DNA from: an uncultured Candidatus Saccharibacteria bacterium
GTDB taxonomy: Bacteria > Patescibacteriota > Minisyncoccia > Phycocordibacterales > Phycocordibacteraceae
DNA: 64,000 bases
Direction: 5' to 3'
NCBI GenBank assembly: GCA_964652615.1
Contig: CAZZAT010000001.1
Location: 359,250 to 423,249 of the forward strand
Shown here: in pieces, positions 21,600-21,887 of the stretch
Layout: each line of letters opens with the position of its first letter
Position numbering within the stretch: the first letter of the stretch is position 1
Translations under genes and position numbers: made by a program
The notes under the pieces: generated by a model
Told to the model about the DNA's origin: nothing
Database searches by the model: none
Seen by the model: only the letters and a program-made list of their open reading frames with translations

Positions 21600-21887
21600 G
21601 CTTGTGCATTTCATAGAGGGTTGGAAGATATCCTCACAAACAGGCGGAGCCCTAGAGGGGGTCCTGGCATTCGAGCTGAAGCGAAAAGCCTTTCGGGGTT
21701 TCTCGCCAAGCATTGTGTCCGGGATGCGGTGTATGCCGCCTCCGTCTACGGTTCATATGTGTTGGGGTAGCTCAGCTGGTAGAGCATTACGGGTTCAATT
21801 CCCGTGAAGGTCGCCAGTTCGAATCTGGTCCCCAATTCCATGAACTAGCGCGAACGAACATTCGCGCCCTCTATGAAATGCACAAGC
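21600..21887 (+). other. 288-nt intervening sequence in 23S domain III, closed by a perfect 20-bp stem
   Basis: 'gcttgtgcatttcatagagg' (21600-21619) is the exact reverse complement of 'cctctatgaaatgcacaagc' (21868-21887). It replaces a short hairpin present at E. coli positions about 1270-1295. Stem length is typical of RNase III-processed IVSs. Confidence 0.6.
21761..21840 (+). ncRNA. tRNA-like element inside the 23S IVS (cloverleaf with encoded 3'-TCCA; anticodon-loop CAA; extended 7-bp anticodon stem)
   Basis: Folds as follows: acceptor GTTGGGG/CCCCAAT; canonical D-arm 'TAGCTCAGCTGGTAGAGCA'; anticodon stem ACGGG/CCCGT with loop TTCAATT; variable loop AGGTC; T-arm GCCAG-TTCGAAT-CTGGT; discriminator T plus CCA. 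Non-canonical points: three nt between the D and anticodon stems, T at position 37, and a type-I variable arm despite a Leu-type anticodon. Confidence 0.4.

Follow-up and report, generated by a model that had tools for sequence, protein, structure and literature searches.

A tRNA-like element within an intervening sequence at helix 45 of 23S rRNA in Paceibacterota and related uncultured bacteria

Helix 45 of 23S rRNA is a known site of intervening sequences (IVSs), and in other bacteria the IVSs located there are removed by RNase III without re-ligation of the rRNA (PMC4990558, PMC2801512). In the candidate phyla radiation (CPR), in which rnc (RNase III) has been retained (PMC12641178), a survey of rRNA insertions regarded short non-intron inserts at known IVS sites as probable RNase III IVSs, and the word tRNA does not occur in that survey (PMC11270868). 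Here we describe a helix-45 insert that contains a tRNA-like element and is closed by a perfect stem. The insert was found in the 23S rRNA gene of an uncultured bacterium, within a 64,000-nucleotide stretch of contig CAZZAT010000001.1 that was analyzed as a whole and is called the window throughout. Two sequence scans together yielded 86 loci (L001–L086) with a helix-45 insert, mostly from Patescibacteria/Paceibacterota, and the tRNA or tRNA-like content recurs in many of them.

The closest described systems each share part of this arrangement. With the helix-45 IVSs of Salmonella, Coxiella burnetii, Campylobacter, and Leptospira, which are cut by RNase III and not re-ligated, the insert shares the site, a long perfect stem that extends the native helix, and a content that varies among relatives, with a small open reading frame (ORF) in some relatives here (L069, L043, and L005). 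However, the described IVSs are empty or carry an S23p-type ORF and are sporadic, whereas the cargo here is a tRNA or tRNA-like element, and the distal stem, a 3′ hairpin, and a GTTCTTT heptamer are conserved across a Paceibacterota clade; excision here is predicted. The tRNA-Ile and tRNA-Ala genes of 16S-23S spacers are likewise co-transcribed within the pre-rRNA, flanked by processing stems, and without a promoter of their own. The family consensus here is near the Ile/Ala type, and one relative (L003) carries a canonical tRNA-Ala(UGC), but spacer tRNAs lie between genes, whereas the element here lies inside the 23S gene, roughly two thirds of its copies are unfit as standard decoders, and the 16S and 23S genes of the window are unlinked. 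A tRNA shape that is conserved while the anticodon is not, within a longer non-coding transcript, is also known from the mascRNA of MALAT1, from plant mitochondrial t-elements, and from mitochondrial tRNA punctuation, and by analogy the embedded tRNA shape here could direct cleavage by RNase P or at the 3′ end. Those systems are eukaryotic or organellar and their cleavage was shown experimentally, whereas the host here is a bacterial rRNA and cleavage is putative. Lastly, group I introns with LAGLIDADG endonucleases are also found as insertions in the rRNA genes of the CPR, and a putative one lies further 3′ in the 23S gene of the window, but the helix-45 insert is devoid of a ribozyme core, an Rfam intron match (E ≤ 1), and an ORF, and a long terminal stem takes the place of splice-site pairings. 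The searchable literature yielded no account of a 23S IVS with a tRNA or tRNA-like element in it, in agreement with the first-pass annotation of this DNA, which did not know the arrangement as described. Helix-45 IVSs, spacer tRNAs, and tRNA-like processing signals are each known, and as far as the searchable literature shows, a clade-conserved tRNA module nested in a 23S IVS is a new combination.

The insertion site was located with an Rfam large-subunit (LSU) rRNA alignment over 21500-22000, in which the segment from ∼21614 to 21879 has no model counterpart. The insertion point falls between model positions 1218 and 1219, within the paired columns of helix 45, i.e., in the helix-45 loop. The first-pass annotation had likewise seen an insert in a 23S hairpin but had assigned that hairpin to domain III; in standard 23S numbering, helix 45 is part of domain II. 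It had also described a clamping inverted repeat of 20 bp, which is indeed perfect but measures 21 nt (21600-21620 with 21867-21887, 100% complementary), and the stem can be extended to 22 bp by one G-U pair. Because the first 8 bp are the native helix-45 stem, the insert proper is 272 nt long (21608-21879). The 288-nt stretch that includes both strands of the stem folds at −139.8 kcal/mol, as compared to −94.3 ± 5.3 kcal/mol for its dinucleotide shuffles (z = −8.6); none of the 200 shuffled sequences reached the native value. Only LSU and tRNA models matched within 21500-22000 at E ≤ 1, with no ribozyme core or other RNA family in the insert, and neither a sigma-70-like promoter nor an intrinsic-terminator-like site was found in 21400-22000.

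The tRNA-like element was called as tRNA-Leu(CAA) at 21761-21840 by ARAGORN and was matched by the Rfam tRNA model RF00005 at 48.9 bits (gathering score 29, E = 2e-7 for the whole window), so that both finders place it above threshold; a covariance model of the family (R1, described below) scores it at 71.7 bits. The near-canonical cloverleaf with an encoded TCCA end and a CAA anticodon that had been read from the sequence at these positions is a tRNA call for both programs, and the odd features pointed out at the same time, namely a 7-bp anticodon stem, T at position 37, and a short variable arm with a Leu-type anticodon, are all present. In a decoder, the anticodon stem would be expected to have 5 bp and the loop 7 nt, with U33 and a purine as residue 37, whereas the window copy has a 7-bp stem and T37; the Rfam alignment gives an 11-nt loop as an alternative to the long stem. 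Bacterial tRNA-Leu belongs to class II and has a long variable arm. Such an arm is absent from the window copy, in which the variable loop has 5 nt (AGGTC, 21808-21812) despite the Leu anticodon. The first acceptor pair is G1-U72 and the T-CCA end is encoded. We consider it very improbable that the element is a working tRNA-Leu(CAA) decoder expressed within the 23S gene. The calls by both finders, the encoded CCA, and the canonical-looking tRNAs found in the same place in L003, L006, and L083 would agree with such a role, but the 7-bp stem, U37, the G1-U72 pair, and a 5-nt variable loop where class II is expected argue against it, as does the Rfam score, which is 74.9 bits for the genuine tRNA-Ile of the window. 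In addition, the homologous elements in L019, L020, L027, and L042 have other "anticodons" and other loop sizes.

The comparison with these four relatives shows which parts of the element are maintained. Among the fetched loci, the 23S genes closest to that of the window are those of L019, L020, L027, L042, and L007 (89-92% identity), and that of L003, a named Parcubacteria metagenome-assembled genome, is 85.8% identical. The best named homologues of the FtsK protein of the window, at 70-75% identity, come from Candidatus Paceibacterota, Parcubacteria, and Patescibacteria. The window insert was aligned with those of L019, L020, L027, and L042, and identity to the window was recorded for each module. 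The arms with the 5′ motif are 83-100% identical, the acceptor 5′ strand with the D arm 77-88%, and the variable loop, T arm, acceptor 3′ strand, and CCA 70-79%; the variable domain is 33-40% identical and the anticodon arm 19-86%. CCATGAA, GCGCGAA, and TTCGCGC are invariant in the five-sequence alignment, and the T-stem differences are compensatory (GCCAG/CTGGT, GCTGG/CCAGT, and GTCAG/CTGAC). In all four relatives the cloverleaf is the minimum free energy (MFE) structure, and the "anticodon" stems have 6-8 bp with loops of 4-7 nt and unrelated sequences; L020 and L042 have a 7-8 bp stem of another sequence than that of the window. In this lineage, then, the lower arm is now a plain hairpin, and constraint acts on the upper half and on the CCA. 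The earlier view of a tRNA-derived element rather than a standard decoder fits these data, with anticodon arms that are aberrant and unrelated in the four relatives and acceptor, D, and T arms that are 70-88% conserved. As a separate observation, the "anticodon" arm of the window (ACGGG-TTCAATT-CCCGT, 21789-21805) matched the pattern of a T arm, a 5-bp stem around TTCRANN, in a T-arm scan; L020 has TTTAATT at the corresponding loop. The match may be a coincidence or a second T-loop-like motif.

The recurrence of the insert was examined in genomes and in metagenomes. The genome scan covered one genome per species, and its pattern joined a T-loop, across a gap of 47-77 nt, to conserved 23S sequence on the 3′ side of helix 45 and contained nothing else. 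Of the 13 loci returned, 10 are labelled Patescibacteria, Paceibacterota, Kaiserbacteria, or Parcubacteria. All 13 share one architecture, with Rfam tRNA matches of 42-74 bits at helix 45 within the 23S gene, and in three of them the match is a tandem pair. The metagenome scan used a pattern made from the 3′ arm and the 23S flank alone, with tRNA sequence excluded, and returned 73 loci that are partly redundant (64 of 76 extracted inserts are distinct). In 33 of the 73 metagenome loci, the covariance model R1, which was built from 33 IVS tRNAs, scores 30 bits or more within the insert, and four further loci give a weak match; in five of the loci with no match, fewer than 150 nt are available on the 5′ side of the 3′ arm. 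Two model matches are present in eight loci. Complete genomes with a tRNA-bearing insert of this kind include CP174360.1, OZ253947.1, and OZ244961.1. Only about 10 model matches lie outside inserts in 647 kb, and the enrichment in inserts is therefore very large. The counted tRNA-like matches within inserts are all on the 23S strand, and all inserts are at the helix-45 site. Insert length, from 59 to ∼800 nt, and content differ widely between close relatives. In an alignment of 33 sequences, pairing holds in 93% of the cells, as compared to 36-48% in slid controls, and both partners vary in 19 of 21 pairs; this set is biased towards cloverleaves because its sequences were picked by ARAGORN. 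The refuting outcome named in the first-pass annotation, low tRNA-finder scores together with ordinary expansion sequence at this 23S position in relatives, did not occur: both finders score the element above threshold, and relatives show a tRNA-shaped element with strong stem covariation in that ARAGORN-picked set.

These data also bear on the origin of the insert. The relatives with the closest 23S (89-92%) are also those whose IVS flanks and tRNA-like element are most similar to the window's, a pattern indicative of vertical descent. The first-pass annotation had kept a mobile insertion in play, and in this explanation a tRNA-derived mobile element, of the short interspersed nuclear element or miniature inverted-repeat transposable element type, or a horizontally moving IVS landed in helix 45. 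Horizontal spread of IVSs is thought to occur in other bacteria (PMC11270868), and two carriers are labelled Bacillota (L011, JBLNCF010000015.1) and Rhodospirillales (L012, JABMOY010000244.1). Both labels are doubtful, because the 23S of L011 is 87% identical to that of the window and L012 is a 1.8-kb contig. The 23S of L011 is nearer to that of the window than those of named Paceibacterota are, and the labels probably reflect misclassification or mis-binning. No other IVS or tRNA-like copy is present in the 64 kb of the window, where the only BLAST match is a 19-nt D-arm similarity to tRNA-Ile, and no target-site duplication was seen. With the helix-45 site and the 23S-strand orientation fixed across inserts, and with IVS flanks and tRNA-like element that co-diverge with the 23S, we regard mobility as the least credible of the explanations considered here, and this part of the first-pass annotation is not upheld.

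The tRNAs in the inserts are of several kinds. Canonical-looking members include an Ala-UGC tRNA in L003 with G3:U70, A73, and CCA (74 bits in Rfam), a Trp-CCA tRNA in L006 with the loop CTCCAAA and G73 (67 bits), and an Arg-ACG tRNA in L083 with a GGATA D loop. For a tally, we used the 37 distinct ARAGORN calls inside inserts. CCA is encoded in 28 of the 37, the anticodon loop has 6 or 8 nt in seven, and A34 occurs in an anticodon other than ACG in seven. Ten have a Leu, Ser, or Tyr anticodon, and none of these ten has a long variable arm, all being shorter than 82 nt; two IVS tRNAs fall in both the A34 and the Leu/Ser/Tyr group. In bacterial decoders, Leu, Ser, and Tyr tRNAs have class II long arms and A34 is confined to Arg-ACG. 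We relied on these established rules because control tRNAs were too few, four lying outside the extracted inserts in the same loci, one of which (L008) is in fact within a mis-anchored helix-45 insert. By our own tally, the three criteria exclude 22 of the 37 IVS tRNAs (∼60%) as standard decoders, and ∼26 of 37 (70%) are non-standard when insertions and other anomalies are added; such non-decoders include the window copy. Insertions of 20-110 nt in the anticodon or D region are found in L002, L011, L017, L021, L068, L079, L081, and L082. Invariance in the 33-sequence alignment reaches at least 90% for the D arm, for the T loop, and for the variable loop AGGTC. G3:U70 is seen in just 5 of the 33, and the discriminator base differs among them. 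Model R1 scores the genuine tRNA-Ile of the window at 81.5 bits, and the family consensus is near Ile/Ala-type tRNAs. The IVS tRNA family is thus a mixture of canonical-looking and degenerate members. A single origin followed by free anticodon drift, which the uniform D arm had hinted at, is weakened by the canonical-looking Ala-, Trp-, and Arg-type members.

Another explanation is that the window copy is a decaying pseudogene of a tRNA gene once present in the insert, now functionless in this lineage. Its anticodon arm is aberrant and differs among close relatives, the element is lost entirely in L024 and L065, and the anticodons of the family are broadly those predicted from random triplets (in 15 of 30 IVS tRNAs with 7-nt loops, the anticodon is one that bacterial class I tRNAs can have, versus 56% from random triplets by our own calculation). 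Decay is nonetheless unlikely in our view, for the upper half is 70-88% identical where the neighboring IVS is only 33-40% identical, the T-stem changes are compensatory (e.g., GCCAG/CTGGT versus GCTGG/CCAGT), the "anticodon" arm is a stable helix of 6-8 bp in all five clade members, and the CCA is kept.

The inserts share an architecture beyond the tRNA-like element. The helix-45 stem has at least 18 bp in 63 of 76 inserts, with a median of 21 bp. In its proximal 8-10 bp the sequence varies and the pairing stays, and the distal part is conserved as TTCATWGAGG(A)/(T)CCTCWATGAA with compensatory A/T swaps. The 5′ arm is followed by an optional variable domain of 0 to ∼600 nt, then in carrying inserts by one or two tRNA or tRNA-like elements, a short hairpin, and the 3′ arm, with usually 16-48 nt between the tRNA-like 3′ end and the 3′ arm. 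The short hairpin of other family members is equivalent to the 3′ hairpin of the window. A leader/trailer helix extends the acceptor stem, often TTTGTTTGG with CCAAACAAA, and its window equivalent is 21750-56 with 21840-46. Of 64 distinct inserts, 36 contain the heptamer GTTCTTT, as compared to 1.5 expected by chance, and none contains its reverse complement. Its usual place is 6-19 nt 5′ of the tRNA-like element, and inserts that lack a tRNA can have it as well. In the clade of the window, TTCAT[AG]TG takes its place (21751-21762 in the window). The heptamer may mark a site of cleavage or binding. The first half of the Gram-positive boxA is similar to it; identification as boxA was rejected, with the 23S leaders here using CTTTGACA..ACGAATA and the window IVS having GGTTCATATGTG. 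Near the 5′ arm of the window, GAGG (21616-21619) could, judging from base complementarity, pair locally with CCTC (21632-21635) in place of the long-range stem.

On balance, we think it more likely than not that the insert is a helix-45 IVS which is excised by RNase III and serves as an internal transcribed spacer, with a tRNA-derived module processed like a spacer tRNA. The insert would be transcribed within the pre-23S rRNA, and its ends would form the 21-bp stem that extends helix 45. RNase III would cut this stem and the insert would be removed without re-ligation, leaving a 23S rRNA of two pieces held together in the ribosome. The excised RNA would then be handled like a 16S-23S spacer tRNA, with an RNase P cut at 21760/21761 and 3′ trimming to the CCA. 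In the lineage of the window, decoding features would have been lost and the upper half of the tRNA shape kept under selection, and in some relatives the module resembles a usable tRNA gene. The window module is likely to be a folding or processing handle for clearance of the insert, or a small non-decoding tRNA-like RNA. Such roles are favored because the acceptor/T-arm stack, the D/T elbow, and the CCA, by which general tRNA-handling enzymes recognize their substrates, are conserved, and the features required for decoding and for most aminoacylation are not; the family as a whole combines a conserved acceptor/T stack, elbow, and CCA with an unconstrained anticodon, as would be expected of a processing element. 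The interpretation as an RNase III-processed IVS, proposed in the first-pass annotation, would fit the helix-45 site, the family-wide 21-bp stem, and the reported retention of rnc.

The insert may instead have a different fate. Helix 45 is on the solvent side of the 50S subunit, and the insert could be retained on the mature 50S as a surface expansion segment, in which the tRNA-shaped branch is a structural or factor-binding module, for example by offering the elbow or the CCA to tRNA-binding proteins. In keeping with retention, a leader/trailer helix of its own closes the tRNA-like domain in a multi-branch fold, as expected of a structural branch, and conservation in the distal stem and in the 3′ hairpin goes further than simple pairing would require. 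We nevertheless hold retention to be improbable. A perfect 21-bp stem at the classical helix-45 site has the look of RNase III-processed IVSs (PMC4990558), RNase III is kept in the CPR, and variation in length and content from 59 to ∼800 nt between close relatives is unlike a functional ribosome component. Moreover, canonical-looking cargo tRNAs with CCA would be useless if never released.

Several points weigh against the excised-spacer interpretation. Excision, 23S fragmentation, and RNase P cleavage are all inferred steps. In L024 and L065, which are somewhat more distant, the arms and the 3′ hairpin are kept and the tRNA-like element is absent, so the module is dispensable. The MFE fold of the isolated 80-mer is a rod (−33.8 kcal/mol) and not the cloverleaf (−29.4 kcal/mol), a result that is uninformative because the genuine tRNA-Ile of the window also has no cloverleaf as its MFE fold. 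The 5′ leader and the CCA end are paired with each other in the closing helix (21750-56 with 21840-46), a pairing that makes for a non-ideal RNase P substrate, and the module might be a mere structural branch. The distal stem sequence TTCATWGAGGA is conserved beyond known RNase III needs and may point to another factor. Finally, the uniformity of the D arm (at least 90% invariant) exceeds what RNase P recognition alone explains. For the group as a whole, we tentatively suggest, with less than even confidence, that the Paceibacterota helix-45 insert is a conserved spacer that houses tRNA genes, that some tRNAs of these reduced genomes, in certain species perhaps the sole Ala-UGC, Trp-CCA, or Arg-ACG copies, are expressed inside the 23S gene, and that cleavage directed by the tRNA shape (RNase P and 3′ trimming) together with RNase III splits the 23S rRNA. 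The parts of the insert and its host gene are listed in Table 1.

Table 1. Coordinates of the 23S rRNA gene, the helix-45 insert, and its parts in the window
Feature	Position	Strand	Basis
23S rRNA gene, host of the helix-45 insert	20330..25100, 3′ end approximate	+	Rfam LSU_rRNA_bacteria covers 20330-23554, then BLAST exons
Native helix-45 stem, 5′ strand (GCTTGTGC)	21600..21607	+	Rfam LSU helix-45 paired columns
Helix-45 IVS, 272 nt	21608..21879	+	Unaligned insertion in LSU model; homologous inserts in 86 related loci
IVS stem extension, 5′ arm (ATTTCATAGAGGG), partner 21867-21879	21608..21620	+	Perfect 21-nt inverted repeat; arm motif TTCATWGAGG conserved
Conserved 5′ motif AGAGGGTTGGAAGATATCCTCA	21615..21636	+	21608-21636 is 83-97% identical in the four closest relatives
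Variable structured IVS domain	21637..21749	+	Closed multi-helix domain in MFE fold; 33-40% identity to closest relatives
Leader strand GGTTCAT of helix closing the tRNA-like domain, partner trailer 21840-21846	21750..21756	+	MFE fold
tRNA-like element	21761..21840	+	ARAGORN; Rfam tRNA; family covariance model R1
tRNA-like element, acceptor stem	21761-67 with 21830-36		
tRNA-like element, D arm	21770-85		
Elongated "anticodon" arm, 7-bp stem TTACGGG/CCCGTGA, loop TTCAATT, CAA at 21796-98, T at position 37	21787..21807	+	Sequence and folds
tRNA-like element, variable loop	21808-12		
tRNA-like element, T arm	21813-29		
tRNA-like element, discriminator T	21837		
tRNA-like element, CCA	21838-40		
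Trailer strand ATGAACT of closing helix; first A is the A of the CCA end	21840..21846	+	MFE fold
Conserved 3′ hairpin GCGCGAA-CGAACA-TTCGCG, between tRNA-like element and 3′ arm	21848..21866	+	Clade alignment
IVS stem extension, 3′ arm (CCCTCTATGAAAT)	21867..21879	+	Inverted repeat; family stem survey
Native helix-45 stem, 3′ strand (GCACAAGC)	21880..21887	+	Rfam LSU alignment
5S rRNA	25195-25300		

The variable domain of the window insert (21637-21749) matched none of the fetched loci by BLAST and nothing in Rfam at E ≤ 1. The inserts of L069, L043, L005, and L049 contain a Shine-Dalgarno-like sequence, an ATG, and a short ORF, as read from the sequence, and in L005 the short ORF stands beside two tRNA-like elements. 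Pieces that resemble rRNA were also noted. The motif (AGTAATC)GCGGATCAGCATGCCGCGGTGAAT is present in the variable domains of L007 (306-321), L024 (5097-5112), L028 (1322-1337), and L038 (683-698) and resembles 16S helix 43; the L007 insert contains an 84-nt stretch that is 75% identical to positions 48-131 of the window 23S (E = 3e-9); and a GGATTAGAYACCC motif like the 16S 790 loop was seen by eye in the inserts of L006, L012, and L040. These pieces could be recombination debris, protein-binding mimics, or assembly chimeras. Several kb 3′ of the helix-45 site, tRNA or tRNA-like matches were found in L006 (7206-7337), L030 (2542-2619), L032 (6670-6746), L035 (6953-7028), L041 (7557-7632), and L072 (3139-3215), the one in L006 lying between 23S and 5S. 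These matches may represent a second setting in which the large-subunit rRNA of this group is accompanied by tRNA-like elements.

The rRNA genes of the window have other interruptions. The end of the 23S gene at 23554 given by the first Rfam alignment is too short, as exons resume further downstream; BLAST with the L002 23S revealed additional exons at 24011-24074 and 24876-25085, just 5′ of the 5S gene. The same comparison places three more 23S insertions beyond the helix-45 IVS, at 22621-22802, 23464-24010, and 24075-24875 (∼183, 548, and 802 nt). In the last of these, 24222-24713 is a LAGLIDADG_1 ORF (Pfam E = 2e-8), and 24693-24868 matches a group I intron weakly (21.8 bits, below threshold). 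The 16S gene is interrupted at 41505-42419, with a break after CTTGTACTCAC near 41504 and the conserved 3′ motif AAGTCGTAACAAGG resuming at 42420; this insertion has a 180-aa ORF at 41746-42288, and at 41743-41837 the group II D1-D4 match, at 28.7 bits, stays below the threshold of 35. The rRNA genes are unlinked and in an unusual order, with 23S-5S first (20330-25300) and 16S ∼15 kb downstream on the same strand, followed by tRNA-Ile(GAU) (40176-43221). No tRNA-Ala was found near 23S-5S or 16S with Rfam, ARAGORN, or model R1. Unlinked rRNA genes with several insertions are typical of the CPR. Between the two rRNA regions lies a 1285-aa ORF (34864-38721) with no Pfam match at E ≤ 0.001.

Bacterial 23S IVSs are usually viewed as short, sporadic insertions that are functionless or carry a small ORF. 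Here, a helix-45 IVS is conserved across a major uncultured bacterial group and repeatedly contains tRNA genes or tRNA-shaped RNAs. If the proposed processing is true, a bacterial rRNA gene would be split by a tRNA-bearing spacer, in parallel to organellar tRNA punctuation and to the tRNA-like 3′ processing of eukaryotic long non-coding RNAs. The tRNA inventories of the CPR would then be affected, and annotation pipelines may drop or mislabel tRNA calls inside rRNA genes. Canonical and degenerate copies in one setting would also provide a natural series on which parts of a tRNA are kept once decoding is not required.

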